A DNA stretch of 64,000 nt from positions 1,824,001 through 1,888,000 of the forward strand of contig OZ242195.1 in assembly GCA_965205975.1 (NCBI GenBank), in the 5' to 3' direction. The DNA comes from Candidatus Latescibacterota bacterium (GTDB lineage Bacteria > Latescibacterota > UBA2968). The position numbers were made by a program, and so were the translations under genes. Shown piece after piece: positions 33,212-49,968 of this stretch (its first letter is position 1; every line of letters starts with the position of its first letter). The notes below the pieces were generated by a model that did no database searches, was not told where the DNA came from, and saw nothing but the letters and a program-made list of their open reading frames with translations.

Positions 33212-33310
33212 GGATCCGCAGATTACGCAGATGGGCGCAGATGAAGGCGGATCAGGATTTTCAGGATGGGAGGATGAACAGGATGAAAGGCGGGAGATGT
33301 CCGCAGATGG
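33212..33310 (+). repeat. CGCAGAT repeat cluster plus 9-bp-period AGGAT repeats at the left edge of the defence island
   Basis: ggatccgcagattacgcagatgggcgcagatgaa; caggattttcaggatgggaggatgaacaggatgaaagg; tccgcagatgg. Confidence 0.8.
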
Positions 33311-33498
33311 CGGAGAAAAAACGCGAGTGAGTGGTTTACTACTGCGACAGCAGTTCATTTGAACAGAACGCCAATTTGCGGCTAAATGAAGAATTTCCCT
33401 TGACAGACAGAGTGAAATCTTTTTCTTTATTCTGCGAGAAAGTCTTTCATGTAATATTTTTACTCAGACCAGCAACTCTTATATTTATACCAGTTATT

Positions 33499-34083
33499 AT
33501 GAAATATAAACTCAAAGACATCGCCCTCGTTCAGATGGGTCTCTCCTTCCGGGCCCGAATCGAACCGGATGCAGATGGAAATGTGGCAGTCATTCAGATG
33601 CGCGACCTAACCGAAGATAACAAGTTAGATCATAGCAATCTGACTACCATTAATATAAACGACATAAATGAACGCCATCTGGTCGAATGCAAAGATTTGG
33701 TTTTCCGCTCTCGAGGTAGAACGACTACTGCCGCAATCATCGACCAGGAACTAGGCCAAGCAGTTGTTGCAGCCCCGCTGTTTCTCATTCGGGCTATAAG
33801 CGAAAAAGTACTGCCAGAATATCTATACTGGTTTATCAACCTGCCCTCATCTCAGGCATTTCTGCACAGCAGGGCGACCGGAACGATGATGATTATGATA
33901 GGCAAATCGGCTCTCGATGCTTTGGAAATCCCTCTCCCCAATCTGGAAACTCAGAAGCAAATCGTCGCCCTCGCCGATTTGTTAAATAGGGAACAAAGGC
34001 TGATGAGAGAATTGACAGAGCAAAAGGAAAAACTGGTCAAAGCAATTCAGATGCGATTGGCAATAGAATCTGAAAAACCTTAA
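33499..34083 (+). CDS. hsdS: Half-size Type I R-M specificity subunit (single TRD)
   Basis: KLKDIA, YLYWFIN, LEIPLPNLETQKQIV; 194 aa, directly upstream of hsdM. Confidence 0.8.
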   Translation: MKYKLKDIALVQMGLSFRARIEPDADGNVAVIQMRDLTEDNKLDHSNLTTININDINERHLVECKDLVFRSRGRTTTAAIIDQELGQAVVAAPLFLIRAISEKVLPEYLYWFINLPSSQAFLHSRATGTMMIMIGKSALDALEIPLPNLETQKQIVALADLLNREQRLMRELTEQKEKLVKAIQMRLAIESEKP

Positions 34084-34105
34084 ATCAACAGGAGTAAAAC
34101 AAAAT

Positions 34106-35617
34106 ATGAATAATCAAATCCAACAAAAAGACATCAACAATGCTGCCTGGGCTGCCTGCGACACCTTTCGCGGCGTGATGGATGCCGCCGGATATAAGGA
34201 CTACATCCTCGTAATGCTGTTTCTAAAATACATTTCCGATGTCTGGCAAAACCACTACGCGGAATACAAAAAACGATACGGCGACAACGATGAACGCATC
34301 CGACGCAGGCTGCAGAATGAGCGTTTTGTATTGCCGGATGGCAGCAGCTTTTACAGCCTTTATGAACAGCGCTCTGCTGCCAATATCGGCGAACTCATCA
34401 ACATCGCACTGGAGGCGATTGAAACGGAAAACAAACAGAAATTGGAAGGCGTTTTCCGCAATATAGATTTCAACAGCGAGACAAATCTCGGCAGAACCAG
34501 AGACCGCAACCGTCGCCTGAAAACACTGCTGGAAGATTTCAACAAACCCGAATTAAATATGAGTCCCAGACGGGTTTCAGAGGACGTGATTGGCAACACG
34601 TACATCTATTTGATTGAACGTTTCGCATCTGACGCGGGCAAAAAAGCCGGTGAATTCTACACGCCGCATAAGGTATCCGAACTGGTGGCAAAACTGTGCG
34701 CGCCCAAACCCGGTGCCCGCATCTGTGATCCGGCCTGTGGGTCTGCGGGTCTTCTCATTGAAGCCGCGCGCGTGGTAGGCGACAAAAACTACGCCCTTTA
34801 CGGAATGGAAGTGAACGGCAGCACCTGGGCATTGGCGCGTATGAATATGTTTCTACACGGAGCCGACGCAGCCCGCATCGAATGGTGCAATACACTCACT
34901 GCCCCCGCACTGGTAGAATCCGACCGACTGATGAAATTCAGCAATGTGGTCGCCAATCCCCCATTTTCACTCAATAAGTGGGGCGCGGAAGACGCCGAGG
35001 CAGACATATACAACCGCTTCTGGCGCAGTTTGCCTCCCAAATCCAAGGGCGACTATGCGTTTATCAGCCACATGGTAGAAACAGCTTTGGAAAAACAGGG
35101 ACGGGTTGCTGTGGTAGTCCCACACGGCGTTTTGTTCAGGGGCGGTGCAGAAGGACGCATTCGCCAGCAACTCATCGAAGAAAACTTGCTCGACGCCGTT
35201 ATTGGCTTGCCGGGCAATCTATTCCCCACGACTTCAATACCAGTCGCCATTCTGGTCTTTGACCGCTCGCGCGAACAAGGGGGGGCGAATGAGAACTGCA
35301 AAGATGTCTTGTTTATTGATGCAAGCCGGGAATATCAGGCAGGCAAGAATCAAAATGCATTGCTGGACGAACATATTGAGAAAATCACTACCACTTATAA
35401 AAAACGCCATGATATGGACAAATACGCCCACCTCGCCACCTTTGAAGAAATTGAAGAAAATGACTTCAATTTGAACATTCCGCGTTATGTAGATACCTTT
35501 GAAGAAGAAGAGGAGATTGATATTGATGCGGTGCAACTTGAGATAGACCGGCTGGAAGAGGAGTTGAGCGTGGTGCGAGGAGAGATGGGGAGATTGATGC
35601 AAGGTATCCGCAGATGA
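34106..35617 (+). CDS. hsdM: Type I R-M methyltransferase subunit (N6-adenine)
   Basis: AGEFYTP, DPACGSAG, ANPPF, PHGVLFRG, FNLNIPRYV. Confidence 0.97.
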   Translation: MNNQIQQKDINNAAWAACDTFRGVMDAAGYKDYILVMLFLKYISDVWQNHYAEYKKRYGDNDERIRRRLQNERFVLPDGSSFYSLYEQRSAANIGELINIALEAIETENKQKLEGVFRNIDFNSETNLGRTRDRNRRLKTLLEDFNKPELNMSPRRVSEDVIGNTYIYLIERFASDAGKKAGEFYTPHKVSELVAKLCAPKPGARICDPACGSAGLLIEAARVVGDKNYALYGMEVNGSTWALARMNMFLHGADAARIEWCNTLTAPALVESDRLMKFSNVVANPPFSLNKWGAEDAEADIYNRFWRSLPPKSKGDYAFISHMVETALEKQGRVAVVVPHGVLFRGGAEGRIRQQLIEENLLDAVIGLPGNLFPTTSIPVAILVFDRSREQGGANENCKDVLFIDASREYQAGKNQNALLDEHIEKITTTYKKRHDMDKYAHLATFEEIEENDFNLNIPRYVDTFEEEEEIDIDAVQLEIDRLEEELSVVRGEMGRLMQGIRR

Positions 35618-35740
35618 ACGCAGATAGGCGCAGATGATTTGAAAGCGGTAAGTTAGAGGAGGAGTCAGTTATTTCCATTTTGGAAACAACTGCCCAAGAT
35701 GGCAAAATCAAAAGGGATCCGCAGATGAAAGGACAAAAAC
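35603..35740 (+). repeat. Two CGCAGAT repeat units bracketing a RhuM-like gene fragment
   Basis: ggtatccgcagatgaacgcagataggcgcagatga (35603-35637) and ggatccgcagatgaaaggaca (35715-35735); the sequence between them translates FESGKLEEESVISILETTAQDGK. Confidence 0.75.
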
Positions 35741-36802
35741 ATGAGCAAGAAATCCTCAAAAGATTTGACGATCCGCAGCAGCACAGCGGAATTTCTGATC
35801 TTCACCCGTCAATCTGGCGAAGGTGGCATTGAGGTTCGCTATGAGGATGAGACCATCTGGCTGACGCAGAAGCTGATGGCGGAGTTGTTTGAAGTTACCA
35901 CCCCAACGATTAACGAACATCTGAAAAACATCTTTGACTCCAGCGAATTACAGCGCGATTCAGTTATTCGGAAATTCCGAACAACTGCCGCCGATGGAAA
36001 AAACTACAATACCCAGTTTTACAATCTGGACGCCATCATCTCGGTCGGTTATCGGGTAAACTCCAGGCGCGCCACGCAATTTCGCCAATGGGCAACCCAG
36101 GTCTTGCGCGATTTTGCGATCAAAGGCTATGTTCTGGATAAGCAACGGTTGGAAAATGGCGCGTTTCTCGGCGAGGATTATTTTGAGCGGTTGTTGGAAG
36201 AAATCCGCGAGATTCGTCTAAGCGAACGGCGGTTTTACCAAAAGATCACCGATATTTACGCCACCAGCATGGATTATAACAGGGATGCGCCGACCACCCG
36301 CGAGTTTTTCGCCAGAGTGCAAAACAAACTGCATTATGCTATTCACGGCCATACCGCAGCGGAATTGATCCGACAGCGGGCAGATCAAAAAAAGAAAAAC
36401 ATGGGATTGACCAGTTGGGAAAACAGTCCCAGAGGCAAAATCCTGAAGTCTGATGTGTCTGTTGCAAAGAACTACCTGTCGAAAGAAGAACTGGAATCTC
36501 TCGGGCGTATCGTCAACGCCTATATTGACCTCGCCGAAGACCGGGCACAGCGCAAGATTCCCATGACAATGGAGGACTGGGCAAAACGGCTCGATATATT
36601 TCTCGAGGCTTTTGACCGGCAGATATTGAAAGACAGCGGACAAGTCAGTGCCGAGATTGCCAGAGCCCATGCCGAAAGCGAGTTTGAGAAATACCGAATT
36701 GTTCAGGATCGTTTGTTTGAATCTGATTTTGATAGAGAAACTAAAGAATTAGAACGACAACTGGGTCGGAAAGACGAGGGTTCTGCGAATATCTGCGGAT
36801 AA
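35741..36802 (+). CDS. rhuM: RhuM-family protein
   Basis: ETIWLTQKLMAELF, YNLDAIISVGYRVNS, ATQFRQWA, IREIRLSERRFYQKITDIYA, HGHTAAELI, VAKNYL. Confidence 0.92.
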   Translation: MSKKSSKDLTIRSSTAEFLIFTRQSGEGGIEVRYEDETIWLTQKLMAELFEVTTPTINEHLKNIFDSSELQRDSVIRKFRTTAADGKNYNTQFYNLDAIISVGYRVNSRRATQFRQWATQVLRDFAIKGYVLDKQRLENGAFLGEDYFERLLEEIREIRLSERRFYQKITDIYATSMDYNRDAPTTREFFARVQNKLHYAIHGHTAAELIRQRADQKKKNMGLTSWENSPRGKILKSDVSVAKNYLSKEELESLGRIVNAYIDLAEDRAQRKIPMTMEDWAKRLDIFLEAFDRQILKDSGQVSAEIARAHAESEFEKYRIVQDRLFESDFDRETKELERQLGRKDEGSANICG

Positions 36803-36853
36803 TATTGGACAAGCAAAACCTATTGGCAAAATTACAAGGAGACCGACCCTACG

Positions 36854-37228
36854 ATGAGACAGATGAGAAATTATCGCGATTATTTGATCGAAAAACTTTC
36901 TGACCGCGAGAGAGCCATCTCCTACCTTCAAACGGCATTGGAAGAGCATGAAAAAGATCCGGATAGTGCCGCGTTTTATTACGGATTCAGTGCGGCTGTT
37001 GAAGCCCAAGGCGGTGCGCGAAAATTTGCCCGAAAGACGCATAGCGATCCTCAAGATGTGGTGAATGCCCTGTCAAATAAGGACGAGACGCTGATTGCGA
37101 ACATCATCGCCCAACTGCCCGCGACGCAATGCGAGATTTCTGAAACAGAGAAATTGCAGGCGGTCAAGATAAAGCAGGAGGGCAAAATCAAAAGGTATCC
37201 ACAGATGGACGCAGATAGACGCAGATGA
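36854..37228 (+). CDS. Orphan addiction-module antidote-like HTH protein, C-terminus extended into the repeat
   Basis: YRDYLIEKLSD...YLQTALEE...AVEAQGG resembles HI1420-type antitoxins; ends in repeat-encoded YPQMDADRRR. Confidence 0.6.
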   Translation: MRQMRNYRDYLIEKLSDRERAISYLQTALEEHEKDPDSAAFYYGFSAAVEAQGGARKFARKTHSDPQDVVNALSNKDETLIANIIAQLPATQCEISETEKLQAVKIKQEGKIKRYPQMDADRRR

Positions 37229-37290
37229 AATGTAGGGGCAGTGCCTTGTGCCTGCCCGTTAGATGAATCCGCAGATGAAAGGACAGAGAT
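37181..37290 (+). repeat. CGCAGAT triple repeat, GTAG REP-like hairpin and a further CGCAGAT unit
   Basis: ggcaaaatcaaaaggtatccacagatggacgcagatagacgcagatgaaa; gtaggggcagtgccttgtgcctgccc; atccgcagatgaaaggaca. Confidence 0.8.
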
Positions 37291-37800
37291 ATGGATAAAA
37301 GACTTTTAGACAATCCTACCGAAATGGTCTGTGAGAGCAGCATCTTATATGGTCGAGAAAAGAGGCTTACCTTCGAAGATATTATCACTGGGAATGCCCC
37401 TCACTATTCAGGGCAGATGGACAATATCCCGACCTTCATCACTCGCAAGCGCGGCGATGAGGCCATAGCCTATAACTACACCAATTTAGATCCGATGTAT
37501 GGGACTATAGTCTATGGGGGACCGAGCATGCGGAAAAAGATTTCGCACAAAATTTTGAGAATCAAACCAAATCCTCAACAGATCTATTGGAAGCCAACCC
37601 TGCAGATCGAAATTGACCCCAAGGCCGACACGTCAGATGATCGTGCGAATGAACTTGTGCAGTTGGTTCAATCTTGGGTGGACGAGGGAGATGCTGACGA
37701 ACAGCGAGAAACACTCGAATACCTCATTCACGCTTTGGATGAAGATCGGCCGTCCAACCGTAAACTCTTCCCAAAGGAACTGAAAGGAAAGAGTTGGTGA
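37291..37800 (+). CDS. Hypothetical protein, probable antitoxin partner of the downstream PIN protein
   Basis: Stop overlaps the PIN start (GTGA); acidic C-terminus LVQSWVDEGDADEQRETLEYL..ALDEDR. Confidence 0.55.
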   Translation: MDKRLLDNPTEMVCESSILYGREKRLTFEDIITGNAPHYSGQMDNIPTFITRKRGDEAIAYNYTNLDPMYGTIVYGGPSMRKKISHKILRIKPNPQQIYWKPTLQIEIDPKADTSDDRANELVQLVQSWVDEGDADEQRETLEYLIHALDEDRPSNRKLFPKELKGKSW

Positions 37801-38294
37801 GCCAGACCGTACTGCTCGATAGCGGCCCTCTTAGTATGATAACCCACCCAAAGAGTTCGGGAAAATCCATGCAGTTTAAAAACTGGTTTCAGCAGTTAGT
37901 AGCCAGCGGCGTGACAGTGATAGTACCAGAGATCACAGACTACGAGGTTCGACGCGAGTTGCTCAGAGCACGCAAAATCAGCAGTATTCAGCGACTTGAC
38001 GCGCTTATCACCAAGACCGAATACCTGGCGATCACAACCGAAGCCATGCGCCAGGCTGCAAAGTACTGGGCCAATGCTCGTCAGCAAGGTCAACAAACTG
38101 CAGATAATAAAGCACTTGATGTCGATATGATCCTGGCGGCGCAAGCGACAATGCTGAACCAGACTGACGTGGTTATCGCGACGACAAACGTAAAGCATCT
38201 GGCCCCATTCACTCAGGCGCTGCTCTGGTCCGATATTAGTCCGGAGATTCCGAGCAGTTCAAACGGAGATTTACAGAATGACAGTGAAAAATGA
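37797..38294 (+). CDS. PIN-domain (VapC-like) ribonuclease
   Basis: VLLDSGPL, ITDYEVRRELL, LDVDMILAAQA, IATTNVKHL. Confidence 0.85.
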   Translation: MSQTVLLDSGPLSMITHPKSSGKSMQFKNWFQQLVASGVTVIVPEITDYEVRRELLRARKISSIQRLDALITKTEYLAITTEAMRQAAKYWANARQQGQQTADNKALDVDMILAAQATMLNQTDVVIATTNVKHLAPFTQALLWSDISPEIPSSSNGDLQNDSEK

Positions 38295-39186
38295 ACTATT
38301 GCAGGATGGATGGCGGGAAGTGAAGTTGGAGGATGCTTGTGAAGTTATTGTCAGTCCAGTTGACAAAAAGACTGTTGATGGAGAATTGCCTGTCAGATTA
38401 TGCAATTACACAGATGTTTATTATAACAATACCATTGATTCTGAAATTGACTTTATGACTGCCACAGCCAAACCTCGAGAAATAGAAAAATTCTCGCTTT
38501 TTAAAGACGATGTAATCATTACTAAAGATTCTGAAACACCCGATGACATTGGTGTTCCTACCTATGTCAAAGAAACCATTGACAATCTGTTGTGCGGCTA
38601 TCATTTGACAATTCTTCGCCCAAAGAAACGGACGATAGGGAAATATGTTTGTTATGCCTTGACTTCTCAGAAAACAAAGTATGATTTTTATAGATTCGCT
38701 AATGGGATTACACGCTTTGGATTGACCTCTAAATCTTACAAAAAAATCAAAATCCTACTTCCACCCCTTCCCGAACAAAAAGCCATTGCGTCTTTGCTGG
38801 AAAAATGGGACACGGCCATTGAGAAAACTGAGGCACTGATAGAGGCAAAAGAGAAGCGGTTTAAATGGTTGCTGAAAACCCTCATCAGCGACCAGCAGGA
38901 TAATCCTGAATGGCAAAAGATGAAGTTAGGAGAGATTTGCACATTTGAATATGGTAAGCCGCTCAAAGAACAAGATAGAATCGGTTATCAATACCCTGTG
39001 TTTGGATCAAATGGAATTGTTGGTCGTCATAACGAGTATTTGGTAGCTGGTCCATTTATCGTGGTTGGGAGAAAAGGTTCGGCTGGTACAGTTTCATATT
39101 CAATGAGTAATGGCTTCCCTATTGATACAACATTCTACATAAATTTACAAAGTGGAGAGATTCACCTTCGGTTCTTATATTACTTA

Positions 39187-40234
39187 ACGCGATGTGTGAC
39201 TTCAAAATGTTACGAGGCCGTCAAAATCCAGCGGGTCTCTGTAATTGATGATATTTAGAAAGACACACATGGTATGGGTTAAGATTTTGGTATGCCACAA
39301 GTTTAATAGATGCCAAGCATCTCGCACTTTCATGCGCGCAATATGCAAACGTTCAGTCAATTGTGCGTAAACGGTTTCGACTAATCGCCTTGTGGTTCTC
39401 TTGGCTTTGGGCAAAATGAAAGGGGTGCGTTGTGGATTGTCTTTCATATTGGACTTTAAGGGTGTCTTTATGCGTATGCGGTAGGTATCAAAGCACCTTT
39501 TTTGCCAGTCCAAATCCATAAATGCTGAATCGGCTAAGACGGTTGTATCTCCCATCGTGCCTTCTATGAGTGCGTCTCGGCACTGCTTGTCGTGTCCATA
39601 GGCTTGCAGGATAGGCGCGTGGAGGATAAGGCCATAATCCGTGATCCTCAGACCGCCCTTAAAACCAAAATACGCTTCGTTTTTGGCTGCGCAAAAGCCT
39701 TTTGAAGGGATAGGGAACTCAAAGACGGGCTCACCTCTAAAAATCTTGCGCGTATGTCGCCTTGCCAGTTTACAGATGGGTAAGGGCAAGGTGTCTATGA
39801 TCTGACAGGACGCCTGATGCCCTTCGAGGCAGGCCACAATCCGCTGTTGCATCCACATCTTGACAACCCACAAATTGGCACATTGACGCACAAAGGCCGG
39901 ACGATCTTTCAAAGTGGGAAACCAGTCTATAAAGTGTTCTTTCATCTGCTCATAAAGTTTCTTCTGGCTTGAATACCCCAAAAAGTGACCCACGATTTCT
40001 ATGGTGAGGCATTCCACATCACTTAAACCGGGTTCAAAGCCTGCCCGACGCGGCTTGCCATGCACCTCACAATACGCTGGATAGAGGTCGTCTTCAATAA
40101 AACAGTAGATTGTAATGACAAAAAGGGCTAAATTATACATTGGAGGTTCCTTTCGTTGCATGGCTTCTTGTTTTACGGACAATCCAAGATAGCCGAGGAA
40201 CCTCTTTTTGTCTATTTAAAGTCACACATCACGT
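39187..40234 (-). mobile_element. IS982-family insertion sequence (1048 bp)
   Basis: Terminal IRs acgcgatgtgtgactt / aagtcacacatcacgt; 9-bp target duplication TATTACTTA at 39178-86 and 40235-43. Confidence 0.9.
39202..40140 (-). CDS. IS982-family DDE transposase
   Basis: LSDVECLTI, IIDTLPLPIC, YFGFK, VLADSAF, RRLVETVYAQL; start probably MYNLAL. Confidence 0.88.
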   Translation of the reverse strand: MYNLALFVITIYCFIEDDLYPAYCEVHGKPRRAGFEPGLSDVECLTIEIVGHFLGYSSQKKLYEQMKEHFIDWFPTLKDRPAFVRQCANLWVVKMWMQQRIVACLEGHQASCQIIDTLPLPICKLARRHTRKIFRGEPVFEFPIPSKGFCAAKNEAYFGFKGGLRITDYGLILHAPILQAYGHDKQCRDALIEGTMGDTTVLADSAFMDLDWQKRCFDTYRIRIKTPLKSNMKDNPQRTPFILPKAKRTTRRLVETVYAQLTERLHIARMKVRDAWHLLNLWHTKILTHTMCVFLNIINYRDPLDFDGLVTF

Positions 40235-40511
40235 TATTACTTATTATTGCATGTAGAACTTGATAGAATTAGTGCTCAGTCTGGTGTGCCGGGTCTAAAC
40301 AGAAATGATGCGTATAAAATTTCAATATCAATACCGTCTTCTGTCGAGCAAAAAGGAATCACTCGAACACTAGACGCAGGAAACCGTGAAATTGATCTAC
40401 TCAACCAACTCGCCGAGAAATACCGCACACAAAAACGCGGATTGATGCAGAAGTTGCTGACGGGAAAGTGGAGGGTAAAACCAAACACGAAGGCGAGGAT
40501 GTGAATTTTAT

Positions 40512-40577
40512 AAAAAAAGGAGCGACCAGCCTCAAATGAGGAGGATTACTGAAAAGGAGCAATCCTCACTGGTCACT
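40512..40577 (-). ncRNA. Candidate structured sRNA, antisense to the island transcript
   Basis: Minus-strand TTGACA(40612-07)-17 bp-CATGAT; outer stem agtgaccag/ctggtcgct enclosing two hairpins; ends in T7. Confidence 0.45.
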
Positions 40578-40641
40578 AATATGATCATGTGCCATTATGC
40601 TGCATTTGTCAACCAAGTAAATGCTTAAAACAAAAAAATTA

Positions 40642-40711: not shown

Positions 40712-43700
40712 ATGGCTACATCAAAACGAAATTATTCACAAAGGACACAGAGGATTCTGGACATCCAGAGCTTAAATCAATGTGCATTCCCAGGATGTAC
40801 GAGCCCTTTGGTCGAGCCAGGCGCCGGACAATCAGGCCCTGCTGTTATTAGTGATATATGCCACATTTATGCTTCGAGCCCTAGTGGTCCAAGAGGGCAA
40901 GGGGGTCTCACAGAAGATGAACTAAAGTCTATAGATAACCTGATTTTGCTTTGCCCGAATCACCATAGGGTGGTGGACCGTCAACCTGAAACTTATACAG
41001 CTGAATTGCTCAAACAATGGAAGGAAGAGCATGAAGCTAAAGTGAACAAGCAACGCCCTGCTGGCTTAGATATTATAAGGGAAATCGTTGATCAAAAAAT
41101 TAAGGATGAAACCGATATACTCCGCAAATCTCGCTTTTTTGCCGAGTTTAACAGTACCCTATATTCATTAGAACTCGCAAGAAAGTTGGTAGAAGGAGAA
41201 CTTTCGGTTGGTACTAATGCTGTAAGGAGACAGGCCCTTGCTTGGTGTGTGCGAATCCTATCTGCCAAAAAATTGGATAAAGCAAAAGAATATCTCTATC
41301 ATGCGAAAAAAATAGGTACTTGTGAAGAAATAGATATAGCAGATGCCTTTATATCGTCACAGAAGGGTGATAAAAGCACTGCTCTAAGTGCTCTGACAAG
41401 CATTGATTCACCAATGTCTCTGTCCGCAGCCCTCATAGTTGTCGCAAATCATGATGGGTCACAGGAGGCTATTGACTGGCTAAAGACAGTCGGTATTGAC
41501 ACTGCTGATTTGGCCCCCGAAGGCAAACGGTTTCTTTTGCAGTGTCAGCTTGAACTCGCTGATTGGGAGGCAGCACAAGAATGTCTTGATGTACTGAGTG
41601 ATGACGATTTGCGTGATGCCCCAGTCCTCCATCACTTGAAGGCTATAACACACCTTCTAAGAGCAGTGCCAGATGAACTTCGCTCTAGCATACTTCAACA
41701 ACCACCTTTTGAAGCTGTCAAATTTCCTCTTGGATCAGATGCAGATGCAATTGAAGCCCGCCGACTGGCACACCACCACTTTATAGAGGCTCAAAAAGTA
41801 GCAAATCAGTTAAATTTTCCACAGGCAGCAGCAATAGATAATGAGTACGCACTGTGGCTTGAACTCAAGGATCCCAATGAATCGGACAATGGGCGGAAAC
41901 GGCTGGAAGTTGAACTTAGCGATCCCAAGTCCGCTCTACACCTCGTTCATCTCGGATTTCAATTTGGCATAGAATTAGATACAGCATTAGTCGAACGGGA
42001 GATCGAAAGACAAATTGCTCTCAATGGCAAAACGACCTATGACGCGGCAAAAGCGCGTCTTGCTATCGTTTTCAGGCAACAGACGCCGAAGGAGGCCACA
42101 AATTATATCGCTCGGTACTACGACGAACTTGTCGACCATATTAGTAAAAAATCACTACTGTTTCTCCAAATAGATCTGTTTTCTCAAACTGGACAGATAG
42201 GAAAGGCAAAAGAGTGCTTAGACATCCTTTTAAAAGAAGGACTGCCTGAGATAGATAAAAGCCGGCTTGAGTTCATAATTGCTGAGGCAGAAGGAGAAAT
42301 TGATCCGGTTGAGAGTCTCAAAGAGCAGTTTCAAAAAACAAACGCCCTTAATGATTTGGAAAACCTTGTCCGCAGGCTCAAAGAACAAGATGACTGGAAC
42401 GGTCTTTGCGAATATAGCGAAATTCTGTTTGACAGAACCGGCGAGTTGCGCCAAGCGGAGGATTTAGCACTCGCTTTATACAATACACAAAAGAATGAAC
42501 AACTTATAAAGTTTCTGAAATCAAACAAAGAACTTTTAACGCAGTCCGAACTACTACAAATGCTCTATTGCTGGGCTTTGTTTTTCGAGGGCGATTTACT
42601 CAAGGCTCGCTCCGAATTAAAAAAATTAAATGGTGATTGGGATGATGAGAAAAACCGCAAATTACATCTTTATCTTACAATCTCTTTGGGTGATTGGCCT
42701 GATCTTTCTGAATTTGTAGTTAAAGAGTATCAGAAGAAAGACAAGAGAAATGCTCAAGAATTGATACAAATTGCTCAACTGGCCCTTCAAGTGAACTCAC
42801 CCTATGCAAAAGAGTTGATACAGGCGGCGGCAAACAAAGGGAATAATAATGCTGATGTATTAGGAACCGCCCATTTTCTTGCAGCAAGAGCAGGTTTGGA
42901 AGATGATCCAGAGGTCTCTCAGTGGATTCAACAAGCCGTTGTGCTCTCTGGTGACGATGGACCAATCTGGAAAATGACGCTAAAAGATTTCTGGGATCAA
43001 GTGCCAAATTGGAATCGTCAAGCCTCTGAAATATGGCATCAGTTGAGACGTGGCGAGATCCCGATGTTTCTTGCCGCAGAAGGTACCAATAGGTCCCTTA
43101 GTGATTTGATGCTTTTCCCCGCTTTGGCGAATCCATCAGTAAACGATCCTCGGCGGAGAGTCATCATCCCTGCATATAGCGGTCAGCGACACCCGTTATC
43201 TCTCGATATCAATAGACAAATCGGAATGGATGCAACCACATTGCTCACTTTGAGTCTTTTGAATCTGTTGGACGATGCACTGGACGCTTTTGATACGATC
43301 CACATACCACATTCAACTCTTCGCTGGCTTTTTGATGAAAAACAGAGAGTTGCATTCCATCAGCCAAGCCGGATCAAAGATGCGAAAGAAGTATCTAATT
43401 TATTGAACACTGGTGCGTTAGAAAAATTCTCGCCAAGTACTGTGCCCAACAGTGATTTATCCATCCAAGTTGGAGACGTGTTGGCACAATTTATAGCAGA
43501 GGCAGAAAAAGCGAGCGACAATGACAATACTCAACGCATCGTCGTGCAGCCATCCCCTGTTTATCGGGTTGTCTCTCTGATGGAAGAAGAAGCAGACTTA
43601 CAAGCGCATGAAACCGTGTTGAATAGTTGCCAAGCTATTGTGGAGAAGTTGAGACAAAAGGGCCAGATTACGGCGAATGAAGCACAGAAGGCATGTGACT

Positions 43701-44782
43701 ATTTGCAACTTCACGAGAAACCCTGGTCAAACCAGCCAGATATAGCTGATGGAGCAATACTGTATTTAAGTGACCTGGCTATAGCCTATTTTCAGTATCT
43801 CGGAATATTGGAAAAGCTGCATGCTGCTGGCCTCAAACCTATTATTTCGCCCCAAAAGGTATCTGAAATAAATCAACTCATTTCTTATGAAAATATTTCT
43901 GAAAAGGCCGAAAATACCATAGAACACATACGGCTGGCCGTCAATTCACGGATAGAGACAGAAAAAATACAGATAGGCAGACAATTCTATGTCGATCAAC
44001 CAATAGACAGGTCAATATCCGAACATCCAAGTGTGGGTATTTTCTCATTAGAGAAGGGCTGCAACGCAATCATTATGGACGACAGAGTCCTCAACCAACA
44101 TGCCAATTCCAATCATAGCGACCCACCTATGCCGATATTTTCAACATTGGACCTTATAGATGCACTGGTCTCTAATGGTTCTAAAATACCTGAAGAACGA
44201 CGAGAGTACAGGACCCAACTTCGTAGAGCTGGATACGTATTTATCCCCGTAAGCGTAGATGAACTTGCCCATCATCTTGAAACCTCTGAGGTTGTGGATG
44301 GCAAAGTTGTTGAGACAGCCGAATTAAAAGCTATCCGCGAAAATATTCTTCTCGTTCGAATGAGTACCTGGCTTCAACTTCCAGAAGAAGCATATTGGCT
44401 TGTTGAGTTGCAAAAAACTTTTGTCCATGTGCTAAAAGATCAGTGGAAAGCCGATGCTGACTTTTCGGTTGCCCGGACCCACTCTGACTGGATCTTGGAT
44501 CAAATTGGCATCCATGGCTGGGCACATAGCTATGGCCCTGAGATCGGATCCAACATTGTCAAGACGGGAAGTAGCGCACATATTATGGCGGTGCTCACAC
44601 CCCCAGTTGAAGAACCACAGAAAGTCAGGAAGGAATACTGGAATTGGGTTGAAGGGAGAGTTTTAGCTCCGATCAAAGAACAATATCCCGATCTGTACCT
44701 CGAGCTTGTCGAATGGCACCGAAGATGGATTGCAAAAATTGCTGATATGGATATGATTGAGGAAAGGAAAAATGATGAATAG
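40712..44782 (+). CDS. Large putative defence protein: N-terminal HNH nuclease, TPR-like helical region, C-terminal tandem PIN-like domains
   Basis: CAFPGC...ICHIYASSPSGPR...NLILLCPNHHRVVD (Zn-binding HNH); long all-helical middle; IGMDATTLLTL..L..L..F..IHIPHST, LYLSDLA and IIMDDRVL PIN-like motifs. Confidence 0.75.
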   Translation: MATSKRNYSQRTQRILDIQSLNQCAFPGCTSPLVEPGAGQSGPAVISDICHIYASSPSGPRGQGGLTEDELKSIDNLILLCPNHHRVVDRQPETYTAELLKQWKEEHEAKVNKQRPAGLDIIREIVDQKIKDETDILRKSRFFAEFNSTLYSLELARKLVEGELSVGTNAVRRQALAWCVRILSAKKLDKAKEYLYHAKKIGTCEEIDIADAFISSQKGDKSTALSALTSIDSPMSLSAALIVVANHDGSQEAIDWLKTVGIDTADLAPEGKRFLLQCQLELADWEAAQECLDVLSDDDLRDAPVLHHLKAITHLLRAVPDELRSSILQQPPFEAVKFPLGSDADAIEARRLAHHHFIEAQKVANQLNFPQAAAIDNEYALWLELKDPNESDNGRKRLEVELSDPKSALHLVHLGFQFGIELDTALVEREIERQIALNGKTTYDAAKARLAIVFRQQTPKEATNYIARYYDELVDHISKKSLLFLQIDLFSQTGQIGKAKECLDILLKEGLPEIDKSRLEFIIAEAEGEIDPVESLKEQFQKTNALNDLENLVRRLKEQDDWNGLCEYSEILFDRTGELRQAEDLALALYNTQKNEQLIKFLKSNKELLTQSELLQMLYCWALFFEGDLLKARSELKKLNGDWDDEKNRKLHLYLTISLGDWPDLSEFVVKEYQKKDKRNAQELIQIAQLALQVNSPYAKELIQAAANKGNNNADVLGTAHFLAARAGLEDDPEVSQWIQQAVVLSGDDGPIWKMTLKDFWDQVPNWNRQASEIWHQLRRGEIPMFLAAEGTNRSLSDLMLFPALANPSVNDPRRRVIIPAYSGQRHPLSLDINRQIGMDATTLLTLSLLNLLDDALDAFDTIHIPHSTLRWLFDEKQRVAFHQPSRIKDAKEVSNLLNTGALEKFSPSTVPNSDLSIQVGDVLAQFIAEAEKASDNDNTQRIVVQPSPVYRVVSLMEEEADLQAHETVLNSCQAIVEKLRQKGQITANEAQKACDYLQLHEKPWSNQPDIADGAILYLSDLAIAYFQYLGILEKLHAAGLKPIISPQKVSEINQLISYENISEKAENTIEHIRLAVNSRIETEKIQIGRQFYVDQPIDRSISEHPSVGIFSLEKGCNAIIMDDRVLNQHANSNHSDPPMPIFSTLDLIDALVSNGSKIPEERREYRTQLRRAGYVFIPVSVDELAHHLETSEVVDGKVVETAELKAIRENILLVRMSTWLQLPEEAYWLVELQKTFVHVLKDQWKADADFSVARTHSDWILDQIGIHGWAHSYGPEIGSNIVKTGSSAHIMAVLTPPVEEPQKVRKEYWNWVEGRVLAPIKEQYPDLYLELVEWHRRWIAKIADMDMIEERKNDE

Positions 44783-46703
44783 CCCTTATGTCAAATCTGC
44801 ATTGGCACAAACAGCTTTGGATCTTACTCCTCCACTTATACGTGAGACTTTGCTTAAGGAGTCTAATTTTCGGGATGAGTACAGTCTCACAGCGAATGTG
44901 ACTCTTTCCTTTCCCGATATTGATACTACATTTCACCTTTCCAGCCTGTACGATGCTATCCGAAGCGTTCTTGCAGGTGCATCAGAAAAGAAAGTGATTG
45001 ATACGGAAGGCCAAAAGTGGAGGCTAAAAAACATCGGCAAGAAAGGAGAGCCGCATCTTTCACTTTCTCGCGGCGAAAAGCATTTCTCTCTTCCTGACCT
45101 TGCGACACTTTCTCCAGATAGAGATACACGTCTACGTTTTCTTGATGAAGCTATTTTTGACGTTAATCTTCCCAGCAGTGTATCAGATCAATGGCGTAAT
45201 ATTCTTTCGGAACGCGCCCTCGAAGATGACGAAGTTGATACGTGTCTTAGTGAGTTTCGCAATACACCAGTTGAAATGGTACGTGCCATACAGAGTGAGA
45301 TTATGGCGGGACAAAGTAACTTGTCCTCGCTGGTTCCTTCTTCCCATAGATATTTTGAAAGACTTGTGGGCGTATATGACGACAGTCCTACCATTCGCGA
45401 TTATGCTGCCAGTGGTGGTAGAAAGCTCTTTGCTCAACTGTCTGCGTGGCGACCCTATGACGGCTTTTTATTTAGCCTCCTTCTGTCATCACACACCTCG
45501 CTAACAGATGAAATCAATGTCGATCAGTTGAGTAGTGAAGATCTTGTACGCGCCTACGATTTTTTGGCAAAACATGGTGATAGAATTTCGCAGTTGGGTG
45601 CTATTGAAGTCGGCTTGCGCGTTCTTCCATCAAGGCCTGAGATAGAACAGGGTCTTATCAGTCTCATTGAGCAAATTCGTGATGACGATATTGAGGGACA
45701 AACAAGCGATTTCAAACTACTCTGGGCATTGTTTTGCCTTGTGGATGGAGAGCTATCAAGGACCCGTCTTTTGTCTTCGAAACCACCTTTTTATAGAAGA
45801 TTAGCAGCCTTATCACAGGCTGCATTGATTCATCGCCAGCATGTGAATTTACCTATTGATGTTGACATTGACCGCTTCAGTAAATGGACTTTTAGCAATC
45901 GTGGACAACAATATTACCTCCAATCGCTGGTCGATATGCGTTTGGAACCGCGCTGGGATCCCTATCTTGCAATGGCTTCGCAAATGAAGGCATATTTCTT
46001 TGGTCGCATACTGAGCGCAGCAAAGAAATACGAGCAGAATATAAAGGGTAATCAAATATACGATTTAGTACTCGCAAACAAGACCGGAAGCCCTCAGCCT
46101 TTTGGTGATGACCCTGAGACATGGTTACCTGGTCCATTAGAGGGAGAGGAAAAAACGCAAAAGAATTTGCCAGCCGAAATCGCAGAAACAATTGAGACAC
46201 AGATCCGGAAAGATGAAGTAGGACCATTGTCGTTTGTTGCGCTTGTTAATTTCGCCTTGATTTTTCCTTTTAGTACAGATCATGCTGAATTGGCGGCAAA
46301 AGCATTACAGCGTGCTAACTATCGAATTCCGGACATAGAAGACAGATCGCAGCTTGTTATTATATTAGATGGACTGGCTAAGGTTGCCGCCGTTTCGAGG
46401 AGTTTAACACTCGCGGATGAATTGCAAATCCTTGTACGTAGATACAGGCATGATGCTGAGTATGAGTTGTCCATACAAGAGGTCATAAGAATCTGCCTCT
46501 TAGCCGCTGCAAGTCGTTCAGATCTGAGTGAATGGACAAAATTTGTCGGTGACTGGCTAACGGAACTCGCATTTGGCGATTTGAAAGACGAAGAAGCACA
46601 AGGACTCCATTTGTGCTTAAATAGTCTTTGTCATGCAGTTCCTGAGCTATGGGTATCCTGCGGAAGAGCCGATGCCGCTCTATCCGCTTTGATAAACAAA
46701 TGA
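44772..46703 (+). CDS. Uncharacterised 643-aa helical protein translationally coupled to the HNH-TPR-PIN gene
   Basis: Long ORF; ATG overlaps the upstream stop; RBS gaggaaagg; no catalytic motif recognised. Confidence 0.8.
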   Translation: MMNSPYVKSALAQTALDLTPPLIRETLLKESNFRDEYSLTANVTLSFPDIDTTFHLSSLYDAIRSVLAGASEKKVIDTEGQKWRLKNIGKKGEPHLSLSRGEKHFSLPDLATLSPDRDTRLRFLDEAIFDVNLPSSVSDQWRNILSERALEDDEVDTCLSEFRNTPVEMVRAIQSEIMAGQSNLSSLVPSSHRYFERLVGVYDDSPTIRDYAASGGRKLFAQLSAWRPYDGFLFSLLLSSHTSLTDEINVDQLSSEDLVRAYDFLAKHGDRISQLGAIEVGLRVLPSRPEIEQGLISLIEQIRDDDIEGQTSDFKLLWALFCLVDGELSRTRLLSSKPPFYRRLAALSQAALIHRQHVNLPIDVDIDRFSKWTFSNRGQQYYLQSLVDMRLEPRWDPYLAMASQMKAYFFGRILSAAKKYEQNIKGNQIYDLVLANKTGSPQPFGDDPETWLPGPLEGEEKTQKNLPAEIAETIETQIRKDEVGPLSFVALVNFALIFPFSTDHAELAAKALQRANYRIPDIEDRSQLVIILDGLAKVAAVSRSLTLADELQILVRRYRHDAEYELSIQEVIRICLLAAASRSDLSEWTKFVGDWLTELAFGDLKDEEAQGLHLCLNSLCHAVPELWVSCGRADAALSALINK

Positions 46704-46760
46704 TCCATCTAACCAGAAAATTCGTTCGCCCTTGCATCTAACGGCTTTCCCTCTGGACCT

Positions 46761-48193
46761 GGTGTTGTCCCTATATTAGTTGAAATAGTAGAGGCTCCAA
46801 TGTAAATTGGATACAGCAGATTCAACCGTGAAAACGCTGTGTCCACAACCAAAGGAGCCCGTGATGAAAAAAGTATCGCACAAAGCCCCCAAAGTCAAGG
46901 CAATCCACAAAGACGATGCAACGTCCCAGACACCCACACAAGAAGAACTGGACATACTGGATACCCGCATCGCGCTGATCCAGGCCTTGATCCCATTAGG
47001 ATTAGACGCCGTGGCAGAAGAATTGCAGGAGGAAGTGAGCCGCTTGGCCGGGGACAGATACAGTCGCAAAGACACCGAAAACCCCAATCGTCGGTGGGGC
47101 AGTCAACAAGGGTCTGTGTATCTGGCCGATCAAAAAGTGCCGATCTCTGTACCGAGGGTACGTAATGTGGAGAGGGATGAGGAAGTCTGCCTTGAGACCT
47201 ATCATCACCTCCAAGTTCCCAGACGTATGGATGAAGGGCTGCTCCTTCGCGTGATCAAAGGCATTGCGACTCGGTCTTATCAAGCCTGCGCTGAGGCGAT
47301 CCCGAAAGCCTTTGGGCTGTCCTCATCAACGGTATCGAGACGTTTTATCAAGGCGTCGGCACAAAAGCTGAAGCAGTTCCGTGAACGCTCTTTAGCGCCG
47401 TATGACTTGGTTGCCCTCTTTATAGATGGCAAGACCTTTGCAGACCAAGAGATGATCATTGCTCTGGGCGTGACGATAGAAGGGCACAAAATCCCAATAG
47501 GCTTTGTCCAGGCTGCCACTGAGAACGAACGCGTCTGTCGGCAGTTTATACAGTCTCTCATCAATCGTGGCTTGGTCTATCACAAGGGCCTGCTGTGTCT
47601 TATTGACGGCTCAAAAGGCTTGTATGCTGCCCTTACAAAGGCATTGGACGGTTACGTGGTCATCCAACGTTGTCAGTGGCACAAGAGAGAGAACGTGCTT
47701 TCCTATCTGCCTAAAAATAAACAGGATCAGATCAAAAAGGCCCTACAAAATGCCTACGACCAGCCCACCTACAAAGATGCTAAAATGGCACTCTTATCCC
47801 TCAAAGCGGAATTGGCCTTGATCAACGAAGACGCGCTCTCCAGCCTTGAAGAAGGAATAGAAGAAACCCTTTCCTTGCATCGCCTCGGACTGATGCCGCA
47901 CTTGAAGCAGTCCTTTCGTACGACAAACTGCATTGAGTCCATAAACTCAATGGTCGCACAAATCACACGAAATGTGAAGAGATGGACAAACTCGAATCAA
48001 CGCAGGAGATGGTTAGCCACCGCTCTGCTGGACATTGAACCCCGATTGCGAAGGGTCAAAGGCTACAAAAGCCTACCCAGGCTCAGGCGCGCACTGCACA
48101 AGCACTTGAAACTCGATACAGACTGGCAAGACCCAATTGCTGCGGATTGAAAACACCGGCCTCAATTATTTCAACTAAATATAGGACTTGACC
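46761..48193 (+). mobile_element. IS256-family insertion sequence (about 1433 bp), no target duplication
   Basis: IRs ggtgttgtccctatattagttgaaata / tatttcaactaaatataggacttgacc; flanks ctggacct and agacaact differ. Confidence 0.85.
46864..48150 (+). CDS. IS256-family (mutator-type) transposase
   Basis: VPRVR, LSSSTVSR, LFIDG, LIDGSKGL, QRCQWHK, RTTNCIES; RBS aaggag. Confidence 0.92.
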   Translation: MKKVSHKAPKVKAIHKDDATSQTPTQEELDILDTRIALIQALIPLGLDAVAEELQEEVSRLAGDRYSRKDTENPNRRWGSQQGSVYLADQKVPISVPRVRNVERDEEVCLETYHHLQVPRRMDEGLLLRVIKGIATRSYQACAEAIPKAFGLSSSTVSRRFIKASAQKLKQFRERSLAPYDLVALFIDGKTFADQEMIIALGVTIEGHKIPIGFVQAATENERVCRQFIQSLINRGLVYHKGLLCLIDGSKGLYAALTKALDGYVVIQRCQWHKRENVLSYLPKNKQDQIKKALQNAYDQPTYKDAKMALLSLKAELALINEDALSSLEEGIEETLSLHRLGLMPHLKQSFRTTNCIESINSMVAQITRNVKRWTNSNQRRRWLATALLDIEPRLRRVKGYKSLPRLRRALHKHLKLDTDWQDPIAAD

Positions 48194-48674
48194 AGACAAC
48201 TGGCGAGCATCTCAAGTTCGCAATATCGGTGTTATCGAAGGCAATAGGCCAGCGACAGATAATGATTGGGAAACGATTAAAAGAGGTGGAGACGCAGCCA
48301 TAGTGAGGTGGATCAGAGGCCAAATGAGGGGAAAGACTTGCACCATTGTTTTGGTAGGAACAAACACCGCGAATCGCAAGTGGATCAACTATGAAATAGT
48401 AGAATCGTGGCGTCAAAAAATGGGGGTGGTGGGCATTCATGTCCATGGCCTGAAGGATAGATATGGTCGCACTTCAGCAATGGGCTATAATCCCTTCGGC
48501 TACTTCACATTTCCAAGAACGGTAACAGCAATGTCAAGCGTTGTGCGGTGCTATAACCCACCGGGCCGGAACAGCACAGAGAGGTATAATTGGATTGCCA
48601 ATAATCTTTCAGCGATGGTTGAAGAAGCAATCGACATCCGCAAAAAATTCCAAGCAGGAAGGTATGTCAAATGA
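48192..48674 (+). pseudogene. 5'-truncated Thoeris ThsB-like TIR-domain (DUF1863) gene
   Basis: Frame from the IS end reads PDNWRASQVRNIGVIEGN...NDWE...WIRGQM..KTCTIVLVG..TANRKWINYEI..SW...MGVVGIHVHGLKD; an in-frame TGA lies in the IS end; start and first beta-strand are missing. Confidence 0.85.
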
Positions 48675-49117
48675 ACAACAATGAATGTATCTTGAAGCAC
48701 CTGGAGTTTATTCAGGATATCGTAAACCGCTTGGAATCCAATGCCTTCCTTCTCAAGGGGTGGAGCCTTACCGTCCTTGTCGGAGGATCCTTATTGATGG
48801 TGAGACTTAGGCCAGACCAACCTCTATTAGCATTGACACTTCTCGTACCTGTTTTCGGGTTCTGGATGCTGGATGCATATTTTTTGTGGCAAGGGCGGTT
48901 GTTTCGAGATGAGTACAACCGGGTGCGTAAACAGGATGAGACCGACTTTGCCCTGGATCCGATGCAACATAAGCATAAACCGAAACGTAGCTGGTGCTCA
49001 ACATTTTTCTCCGGTACGCCGTTCATTTTTTATGTTGTGGAAATTGGGTTTGTTTCAGTTCTCGTTTTTTTTCTATGGATGGCAGGCATCCCGGCACCTG
49101 AGAATTGCTTCCCATGA
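48671..49117 (+). CDS. Small multi-TM protein coupled to the TIR gene (putative membrane effector)
   Basis: ATGA overlap with the TIR stop; HLEFIQ.IVNRL..NAFLLKGW, FWMLDAYFL..GRLFR..Y; three hydrophobic segments. Confidence 0.8.
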   Translation: MNNNECILKHLEFIQDIVNRLESNAFLLKGWSLTVLVGGSLLMVRLRPDQPLLALTLLVPVFGFWMLDAYFLWQGRLFRDEYNRVRKQDETDFALDPMQHKHKPKRSWCSTFFSGTPFIFYVVEIGFVSVLVFFLWMAGIPAPENCFP

Positions 49118-49161
49118 TTTTCCTTCTTCGCCAAAGGTAACTAACGGTCTCTTAGAGATAG

Positions 49162-49219
49162 TTTTATCAGCGTCTATCCTGGTCTTCACAAGGACAGGCC
49201 TATGTCCATCTGCGGATAA
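49162..49219 (-). repeat. Reverse-oriented CGCAGAT repeat (degenerate, interrupted)
   Basis: ttttatcagcgtctatc...gtccatctgcggataa. Confidence 0.65.
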
Positions 49220-49247
49220 CACTTAATTTTACATTTTACTCAATACA

Positions 49248-49391
49248 ATGAGCAGACAACCATTCACCAGACCTCAAGCTGCGGAGTTGGCGCGGCGGTT
49301 AAAAGAACCCCGACGATTCATTCAAGTCGTATTGGGAGCGAGGCAGGTCGGCAAAACGACCCTTGCATTGCAAGTGGCAGATCAGGAGGAT
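49248..49391 (+). pseudogene. N-terminal remnant of an AAA+ ATPase, in frame with hicB
   Basis: RRFIQVVLGARQVGKTTL Walker A with no Walker B or remainder. Confidence 0.7.
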
Positions 49392-49619
49392 ATGATGAGA
49401 AATTTTAGAATTATCGTTGAAAGATATTCCGATGGCTATGTGGGATATCCGCTCGGATTGAAGGGGGTCGTCGTTGGGCAGGGAGATACTTATGAAGAGG
49501 CATTGGCAGATGTAAAATCTGCTATTCGGTTTCATATTGAGACGTTTGGTAAAGAAGCGTTTGATGAAGATCCGCCGGTTCTGGAAACTTTTATGATTAA
49601 TGCAGAAATGGCGGTATAG
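49392..49619 (+). CDS. hicB: Short HicB-family antitoxin (no DNA-binding domain)
   Basis: RBS aggagg; FRIIVER..DGYVGY..GL.GVVVGQGDTYEEALADVKSAI. Confidence 0.85.
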   Translation: MMRNFRIIVERYSDGYVGYPLGLKGVVVGQGDTYEEALADVKSAIRFHIETFGKEAFDEDPPVLETFMINAEMAV

Positions 49620-49859
49620 ATGGCGAAGTTTCCTGTGGACGCACCCAGACGAAGGGTGATTCGCGCTTTCGAGTCTTTAGGATTCAAACGTGTACGCGAG
49701 GCAGAACATATTGCTATGCTTAAGGAAAATGCGGATGGTTCAAGAACTCCTTTGACGATGCCCAATCATCCGCGACTAAAGTCATCAACTTTGCGAACGA
49801 TTTGCACGCAATCAAAAATTTCGCGCGATGATTTTTTGCGTGCCTATCAAGATGCTTGA
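49620..49859 (+). CDS. hicA: HicA-family toxin
   Basis: VIRAFESLGFKRVR..EHIAM...LTMPNH..LKSSTLRTI. Confidence 0.85.
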   Translation: MAKFPVDAPRRRVIRAFESLGFKRVREAEHIAMLKENADGSRTPLTMPNHPRLKSSTLRTICTQSKISRDDFLRAYQDA

Positions 49860-49930
49860 TATCATTTGGAGGTTTATTCAGGGCGTCTTGAATCGTTTGG
49901 AATATTACCTAACCATCTATTTTATAAGGG

Positions 49931-49968
49931 TTTTATCTGCTTCCATCTGCGCCCATCTGCGGATAAAA
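49931..49968 (-). repeat. Reverse-oriented CGCAGAT triple repeat just before hsdR
   Basis: ttttatctgcttccatctgcgcccatctgcggataaaa. Confidence 0.8.

Follow-up and report, generated by a model that had tools for sequence, protein, structure and literature searches.

The window analysed here is a stretch of 64,000 nucleotides from a Candidatus Latescibacterota bacterium (assembly GCA_965205975.1, contig OZ242195.1, positions 1,824,001 to 1,888,000), and it harbors a type I restriction-modification (R-M) island in which short tandem arrays of the word CGCAGAT, repeated with a 10-nt period, lie at the junctions between genes. Comparative analysis indicates that these arrays are probably the terminal arms of a small selfish cassette carrying a GxxExxY nuclease gene, REPtron-like in its organization but relying on a different enzyme fold. 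In what follows, G000 designates the source genome (5.56 Mb, 98% complete), G002-G016 and similar handles designate relatives from the same genus, and L-numbers identify fetched loci.

CGCAGAT arrays in the restriction-modification island

The word CGCAGAT occurs 28 times in the window, compared to 11.3 ± 3.4 times in shuffled sequences (0 of 100 shuffles reach 28), and no other 17-kb stretch of the genome is as rich in the arm word as the island, which holds 8, against a genome mean of 0.49 and 4 in the runner-up. Nine repeat places had been listed in an original prediction made from the sequence alone. All of them lie at gene boundaries and present the word within a few bases, bar the copy given as 49162, which is degenerate at that position and has an intact word at 49208-49217. 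The gene remnant reported to adjoin the repeats is also real, since 35636-35707 aligns to an internal part of rhuM. The same prediction had limited the repeat cluster to the island, from the last metabolic gene to just before hsdR. The repeats are not so confined: an identical triple array is found at 2798-2827 (-) and some 109 arms are spread across the genome. The variable region, in turn, extends beyond hsdR to ~55445, where relatives differ with no arm nearby. No Rfam match at gathering score was obtained within 33000-56000. The arms of the window and the genes adjoining them are listed below, with left and right arms named after the ends of the cassette described in the next section.

2798..2827 (-): left arm, 3 units, outside the island; same triple array, holding the stop codon of the gene at 2796-4775
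31508..33211 (+): sulfatase gene (Pfam PF00884), also conserved at this locus in the relatives and marking the constant left edge of the variable region
33214..33242 (+): left arm, 3 units, directly behind the sulfatase stop; putative scar of a GxxExxY cassette, of which G003 has an intact copy in the same position
33250..33308 (+): units with the CAGGAT word, which belongs to a different GxxExxY clade, and then one CGCAGAT unit at 33302-33308
33499..34083 (+): half-size type I specificity subunit, hsdS-like (PF01420; PADLOC Specificity_I)
34106..35617 (+): hsdM, with its last codons and stop provided by the arm (ends in GIRR*)
35606..35635 (+): left arm, 3 units; putatively formed by fusion of the two direct arms on either side of a GxxExxY gene in G005, G002 and G012
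35636..35707 (+): remnant of a rhuM-like gene, ~24 codons (local alignment to rhuM; translation)
35717..35726 (+): single forward unit, resembling with its 5' flank the arm region near 37180
35741..36802 (+): rhuM-family gene, cargo (PADLOC PDC-S05)
36781..36800 (-): right-arm remnant (1 unit and 1 degenerate unit) overlapping the rhuM stop, worded as the right arm of the G012/G002 cassette
36854..37228 (+): orphan ORF (open reading frame), probable antitoxin (its relatives follow RelE/ParE toxin genes), with its stop in the arm
37197..37276 (+): left arm at 37197-37226 (3 units, the first CACAGAT), GTAG-type hairpin and single unit at 37267-37276
49131..49225 (-): first of two copies of a ~75-nt unit, degenerate, with a right arm at its end (intact word at 49208-49217), before the AAA-ATPase start
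49248..49859 (+): AAA_14 ATPase stub fused at ~49385 to a hicB-like ORF, then hicA; the full ATPase is present in G003 and G008
49899..49964 (-): second copy of the ~75-nt unit, with a right arm (3 units, 49935-49964) 18 nt before the hsdR start

GxxExxY cassettes and their home locus

Intact cassettes consist of a left arm, a gene of ~130 codons encoding a GxxExxY PD-(D/E)XK nuclease and an inverted right arm, with the outer 10-mer ATCCGCAGAT inverted at both ends and a length of 408-435 bp in 38 of 39 simple cassettes. The flanks were surveyed in the best 80 of 282 GxxExxY relatives in other genomes, with gene ends set approximately. A forward word upstream and an inverted word downstream were present in 72 of these 80 genes, as anticipated by the original prediction when it linked the repeats to GxxExxY-type genes, and at least two of each were present in 63, while control windows 1 kb away contained words in 3/75 and 2/68 cases. 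The left arm starts within 45 nt of the upstream stop in 51 of the 65 loci with a usable left arm. The cassette occupies gene junctions in the orientation of its host gene, and its left end coincides with the upstream stop codon or lies close to it. Upstream neighbors are mostly housekeeping genes, and a preference of intact cassettes for R-M operons was discarded because R-M families account for only 4 of 66 upstream ORFs (44 with a Pfam hit at 1e-8), being about as common as sbcD (6), PAP2 (4), V/A-ATPase (3) and Dak1 (3).

Terminal inverted repeats such as those of the cassette are a trait of miniature inverted-repeat transposable elements (MITEs) and DDE insertion sequences, in which they surround a small gene and from which gene-less derivatives arise. 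The cassette resembles these elements in its sharp inverted ends around a small gene and in its gene-less derivatives, but differs from them in the top structural matches of its protein, which present a PD-(D/E)XK fold, and in the absence of target-site duplication across the 39 simple cassettes, out of 77 examined, on which this was assessed (1.79 versus 1.71 ± 0.19 in shuffled pairings, a value reached by 176 of 500 shuffles). A ~10-nt direct repeat flanking the hsdM cassette in G002 and G012 had suggested an IS-like (insertion sequence-like) insertion, a possibility rejected because the repeat is not general across those 39 cassettes.

The structural model of the cassette protein (pLDDT 94.5) predicts a minimal PD-(D/E)XK nuclease fold, a match that in itself fixes no function. 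The top Foldseek match is Cas4 SSO0001 (E 8e-5), VIA presents a Z of 8.0, tied with BpuSI and others (root-mean-square deviation 4.5, 101 aligned), and no DDE fold appears among the top structural matches. A PDB sequence search with alignment returned only S100-A8 at E of at least 0.047, which was taken as chance. Residues E28, D68, E78, K80 and Q92 are invariant in 50 sequences, and the catalytic D...ExK (D68, E78, K80) is intact. The QxxxY motif is typical of RecB-family nucleases. The cassette gene is a member of the PDDEXK_3 / GxxExxY family (PF13366, TIGR04256). The passage on PDDEXK_3 in a published survey lists it as of unknown function with multiple transfers, and mentions no link to repeats (PMC3424549). 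No description of the GxxExxY gene-plus-arm unit was found in the literature, a search in which most subscription papers lay outside coverage, so that one may have been missed.

Searches for GxxExxY genes in a sample of 20 genus relatives yielded matches in 16. In G000, neither a gene nor a remnant was detected by hidden Markov model, motif scan, tblastn or blastn. A GxxExxY gene lies after hsdM in G012, G002 and G005 and after the sulfatase gene in G003, in each case preceded by a forward array and followed by inverted words, and the G012 and G003 genes score 140.8 and 138.6 bits on TIGR04256, against a cut-off of 35. These intact cassettes match the window arms at 33214 (G003) and 35606 (G005, G002 and G012). 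The four cognate genes are 82-100% identical to the query and all are located at the R-M locus, whereas all other matches in the genus are at most 56% identical. Because all matches above 56%, and with them all cognate genes detected, sit at this locus, the cognate gene has its home here in the 20-relative sample. Of the partners suggested by the original prediction (RAYT, the REP-associated tyrosine transposase of repetitive extragenic palindromic sequences, GxxExxY or a recombinase), a GxxExxY gene is hence present at the locus in four relatives, but neither GxxExxY nor Y1 transposase (PF01797/Y1_Tnp) has a match in G000.

Other GxxExxY clades carry other words (CACGAA, GCCACAAAA, AACCACAGAT, CGCGGAT and CAGGAT, read by eye from cassette flanks), and these words group with the protein tree (25 rows, with 4 fragments of the 29 rows left out; support 85/77 to 100/100). 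A cassette of another clade in G015 has as its counterpart, at the orthologous site of G000, a scar of 35 bp without the gene. At a second R-M-like operon, the CACGAA-word and GCCACAAAA-word clades share one junction in different genomes (L021-L023, L034, L035, L041, L042).

Arms across the genome and the genus

The source genome keeps around 109 mostly solo arms in cassette register, without the gene. Counts in G000 vary with the pattern employed, from 99 tandem clusters through 109 arms to 123 arrays, the 109-arm pattern being broader than the first and stricter than the last. An initial copy-number search covering 18 same-genus genomes and 12 genomes from another family detected 3-229 doublets in each of the former (a 76-fold range) and 0-2 in the latter, with 0-1 matches per genome for a reversed-pattern control. 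The genome scan proposed in the original prediction thus locates arms genome-wide, at gene ends as in the window, but also between conserved genes and outside the island.

The arrays present a defined relationship to stop codons. Among the 123 arrays, 74 begin between -45 and +40 nt from a stop on the same strand, a number that is 8.6 for random intergenic points; an array end falls at an opposite-strand stop in 1 case, and 19 arrays have a stop inside. Peaks at -11, 0 and +1 from the upstream stop are common to the G000 arrays and to intact cassettes. Approximate classification of the 109 arms places 69 after a same-strand stop and 16 inverted before a start, leaving 24 unassigned, with an inward arm pair (hairpin) within 700 nt in 1 instance. 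The end of the arm facing the gene is sharp (ATCC) and its tail is ragged. A sense-strand stop occurs within 45 nt in 105 of the 109 arms, in two or three frames for 73 of them, and no antisense stop is present in 90. These sense-strand stops fall in shifting frames because the period of the arm is 10 nt, a period that would let an arm clip the last codons of a gene harmlessly. Protein C-termini change where an arm is fused: the sulfatase ends in TLKE* in outgroups and in IRR* with the arm, and HsdM ends in GVKRA* or GIKRA* without the arm and in GIRR* with it.

Orthologous sites were compared with the help of 60 array loci taken from G008, G016 and G010. After removal of 12 duplicate or contig-edge loci and of 4 without a synteny call, 44 rows remained, some of which represent the same G000 site. 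Array and neighbors are shared with G000 at 26 of them, in genomes that are ~94% identical; at 14 the array is absent in G000 with its neighbors unchanged, and 4 differ in gene content, one having different small genes behind the same arm. Neighbors are hence unchanged at 40 of the 44 sites. The G-rich strand carries 71 of the 109 arms and 9 of the 16 right arms, compared to 159 of 201 GTAG hairpins, and replication-strand polarity was rejected as the main cause of arm orientation on account of these arm counts.

Other repeats occur alongside the arms. A ~28-nt hairpin with GCGARTAATTTGAGC lies between CGCAGAT units as a presence/absence variant (e.g. C1:3644246, 3863424, 3988461). All 16 copies are within 60 nt of CGCAGA, and the hairpin is also found inside arms of another word family (L042 flanks). 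This last location rules out that the GCGARTAATTTGAGC stretch is part of a cassette leader; it is possibly a micro-element targeting arms. Additional intergenic families of G000 include 8-mer ACGAAT tandems (190 doublets), GTAGGGGC hairpins (201) and GAAGTGTGAAG (72), as well as further arm families with the AACCACAGAT (29) and CAGGAT (30) words. The sole G000 match to the four-helix-bundle family PF05635 is a broken gene at C1:1810549.

Gene turnover in the island and the origin of the arms

The remaining features of the variable locus are as follows:

37291..38294 (+): unnamed ORF and PIN-domain gene (weak hit), variable cargo; later junctions lack an arm
38278..40504 (+): second hsdS, interrupted at ~39187-40234 by a DDE insertion sequence that is present in multiple copies
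40712..46703 (+): HNH...PIN protein and permuted GreAB-C partner, variable cargo without flanking arms
46761..48193 (+): Mutator-family (IS256-type) insertion sequence, of which the genome has 4 nearly identical copies
48303..49117 (+): gene pair of TIR (ThsB / PDC-M50B-like, 5' part missing) and PDC-M50A (PADLOC)
49982..53176 (+): hsdR (profile and PADLOC matches)
53176..55229 (strand not assigned): YgjP-like and Fic genes, within the variable locus, no arms

With the second and main hsdS split by a DDE insertion sequence and a Mutator-family element in place of the 5' part of the TIR gene, both defense modules look damaged in G000. Several other features of the locus and its counterparts were recorded. 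An ORF of ~100 codons between the half hsdS and hsdM (L002:3393-3698; G004, G006, G015), with no NCBIfam hit, is absent in G000. Pairs of a RelE/ParE toxin and its partner are tandemly duplicated up to three times in the island (L002:7075-8099, L004, L005, L006), and in G004 and G006 an in-frame fusion joins the last partner gene to hsdS. A central part of the ORF at 37291-37800 is weakly similar to DNA polymerase III alpha; most relatives have a 73-codon version that lacks it. GC skew is close to zero or slightly positive from 26000 to 55500, beginning ~7 kb before the R-M genes, in a replichore where it is otherwise negative.

The original prediction regarded the repeats as sites for the gain and loss of small genes. 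In 800 kb of G008 (14% of the genome) compared with G000 as a single genome pair, arms were present at 10 of 107 indels of at least 300 bp and at 28 of 420 other junctions (p=0.40). The odds ratio, computed by hand from these counts, is 1.44 with an interval of ~0.7-3.1. The 107 indels include IS insertions and intragenic changes, so that a modest excess of up to about threefold is still compatible with the data. Arms lie genome-wide between conserved genes and breakpoints are not enriched at them, largely the outcome that the prediction itself had named as refuting it. Across the island, alignment with 15 relative loci revealed variation at 6 of 6 arm-bearing junctions, a figure that is partly circular because arm gain itself breaks the alignment, but also at 7 of 11 arm-free junctions (p=0.24). 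Arm-free breaks occur between hsdS and hsdM, where the ~100-codon ORF is present or absent, at the end of the second hsdS and on both sides of Fic, and the largest cargo (40.5-49 kb), which differs among relatives, has a 5' break without an arm. Codon usage of arm-adjacent genes is typical rather than foreign (64 of 109 arms scored), with upstream genes above the genome median.

Two events do map to duplicated arm units, and to this extent the proposed gain and loss at repeats is upheld. Relative to G005 and G002, G000 lacks 447-471 nt containing the GxxExxY gene, and the join lies inside the 35606-35635 array; with respect to G005 it falls at 35628/35629, skipping 447 nt. G002 lacks 950 nt (AAA stub, hicB and hicA) that G004 carries between two copies of the ~75-nt unit; G002 has one copy, and the join lies in this duplicated unit ~30 nt before the words. 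Both events are read as present/absent pairs, their direction not being fixed, and both are as ordinary direct-repeat recombination would give. The hicBA module, described as bracketed by reverse copies, does lie between two copies of the ~75-nt unit, but the join between hicBA and the AAA gene at ~49385 lies inside a gene and presents no repeat. For rhuM, also described as bracketed, there is no 5' arm in G004, G006, G009 and G015, and its 3' words are forward, reverse or missing depending on the genome, so that it does not constitute a bracketed unit. Gene scraps lie beside arms in G000, and also without any arm in G007 and G013. In Logan contigs from 4 runs, the shorter side of joints near arms measured 19-54 letters, at 85% similarity, and these joints could be explained by other arm copies or strains; no excised circle was observed in these contigs, which cannot show rare variants.

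Integrons comprise the integrase IntI, an attI site and attC cassettes. The island is reminiscent of them in its small defense and toxin-antitoxin genes arrayed in one orientation with repeated sites at some junctions. A dedicated integron-like system that captures and releases these genes at the repeats could account for the densest arm cluster of the genome, the variation of all arm-bearing junctions, the two segments bounded by duplicated arm units and the four orthologous sites with different gene content. We nevertheless consider it very unlikely, given that most cargo breaks, including the 5' end of the largest cargo and the seven variable arm-free junctions, are away from the sites, that indels are not enriched at arms, that arm-adjacent genes have typical codon usage and that the cargo lacks a fixed one-site-per-gene layout. 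Moreover, the sites are dispersed genome-wide between conserved genes. The arms are tandem words rather than palindromes. No IntI over cut-off was found in the whole genome (best TIGR02249 score 88, versus 265 bits), and no tyrosine recombinase was found in the window, with all PF00589 matches more than 250 kb away. Type I R-M operons have been described to embed variable cargo ('guilt-by-embedding'), with no repeat mechanism named in the abstract of that work (bioRxiv 10.1101/2024.01.29.577857). The locus agrees with that outline in having variable genes between hsdM, hsdS and hsdR, among them rhuM (PDC-S05) and the TIR pair (PDC-M50) by PADLOC, and embedding of this kind would explain the cargo, not the arms.

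The remaining alternatives concern the arms themselves. They could be passengers, spread within GTAG-type REP composites through the action of a Y1 (RAYT) transposase or through gene conversion between intergenic repeats, with the nuclease serving an unrelated role in repair or defense. GTAGGGGC hairpins directly follow many arms and polymorphic inserts often hold both, Y1_Tnp matches occur in 13 of 20 relatives, arm number is uncoupled from gene presence and there is a mild replication-strand bias (71 of 109). This scenario does not predict, however, that each clade has its own word or that arms flank the GxxExxY gene in many phyla; in addition, GTAG hairpins are the more strand-biased repeats, arms follow gene stops instead and G000 has no Y1_Tnp match, all of which makes it not very likely. 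Selection for regulatory sites in mRNA or DNA (GxxExxY operators or translation signals) at operon junctions would fit the strict polarity and register at gene ends and the 26 orthologous sites shared between ~94% identical genomes, and a translation-signal role has been proposed for the TAACTGA repeats of Beggiatoaceae (PMC4679880). Yet those repeats precede starts while most arms follow stops, and the 14 sites at which arrays come and go between the same neighbors, the 76-fold copy-number range within the genus and the absence of the cognate gene from G000 make a regulatory origin unlikely. Slippage can generate short tandem words, but the recurrence of the same arrays at orthologous sites in independent genomes and the 0-1 matches of the reversed pattern render an assembly artefact or a chance microsatellite a negligible explanation.

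We therefore favor the selfish GxxExxY cassette as the probable source of the arms. Under this reading, the nuclease would recognize and cut its own arms, and host repair would use 2-4 nt of shared AT/GAT sequence to link arm DNA with the ends of genes, whose last codons would often be replaced; AT/GAT microhomology is seen at the sulfatase, hsdM and L077 joins. Forward-reading arms would be tolerated, their 10-nt period putting stop codons in shifting frames, and cassettes would in time be reduced to solo arms, retained for the stop codons that they provide. The pile-up in the island would reflect the home of the cassette combined with a recombination hot spot, where direct arm pairs would act as passive substrates for RecA- or slippage-type deletion. 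Most of the island cargo turnover is attributable to the usual turnover of a type I R-M hot spot, independent of the arms.

Several observations weigh against the cassette as the source. Action of the nuclease on the arms is a step that we infer, and the scheme does not explain how solo arms travel to new sites. Arm number does not track the gene: gene-less G009 and G000 have 229 and 155 doublets and G015, with other-clade genes only, has 189, against 60, 80, 100 and 188 in gene-bearing G003, G002, G005 and G012. The single inward pair among 109 arms indicates that a mobile gene-less two-arm unit is not evident in G000. The 14 presence/absence sites are not polarized as gain or loss, and only two island arms match intact cassettes, the other ~100 being assigned by word and register. 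Class counts are approximate, as gene ends derive from a purpose-written hexamer gene caller. Lastly, many solo arms are fused to GTAG-type REP hairpins and could thus have been carried by a Y1 transposase, a family with matches in 13 of the 20 relatives.

The closest known parallels are REPtrons and REPINs with their RAYT, and TIRtrons with TIRYT (PMC3116915; PMC3733652; PMC8266576). As outlined in the relevant passages of these works, they share with the cassette a small enzyme gene at a home locus, flanked by inverted cognate repeats that are also dispersed extragenically without the gene, together with a repeat family matched to the enzyme clade, loss of the gene while repeats stay and variable copy number. 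On the same basis, the cassette departs from REPtrons and REPINs in that its gene is a TIGR04256 member with a PD-(D/E)XK fold rather than an HUH/Y1 transposase and its arms are tandem 10-mers, overlapping coding ends, instead of GTAG-tagged hairpins; nearly all its dispersed arms are solo (1 pair in 109), in contrast to the doublets that make up REPINs. Short tandem words at gene boundaries also characterize the short tandemly repeated repetitive (STRR) and short dispersed repeat (SDR) sequences of cyanobacteria. The TAACTGA repeats of Beggiatoaceae, whose origin is stated to be unknown in the passages concerned, likewise are short words in 2-6 tandem copies at gene boundaries with a patchy distribution among relatives; they differ in their word, in mostly preceding start codons and in that no linked nuclease gene is named in those passages (PMC4679880).

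For the notion that the repeats delimit cargo cassettes, these results are mainly a correction, since cargo turnover in the R-M island needs no new cassette machinery. In a broader and more tentative view, GxxExxY genes and their tandem-word arms may represent a whole class of selfish DNA, powered by a minimal Cas4/RecB-like PD-(D/E)XK nuclease in place of a transposase or integrase. The nuclease of each clade would recognize a word of its own and insert at stop codons with no duplication of the target; the hundreds of solo arms so produced would rewrite C-termini and give operons direct repeats for gene loss and regain, and the present locus would be the master site of the genus. The clade-specific word and fixed stop-codon position permit a direct binding and cleavage test for the widespread, function-unknown GxxExxY/PDDEXK_3 family. 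They also point to a candidate source of the short tandem repeats found at gene boundaries in bacteria; no mechanism for these is evident in the available part of the Beggiatoaceae work (PMC4679880). If the nuclease does move its arms, a PD-(D/E)XK enzyme would occupy the role known from HUH transposases in REP systems.

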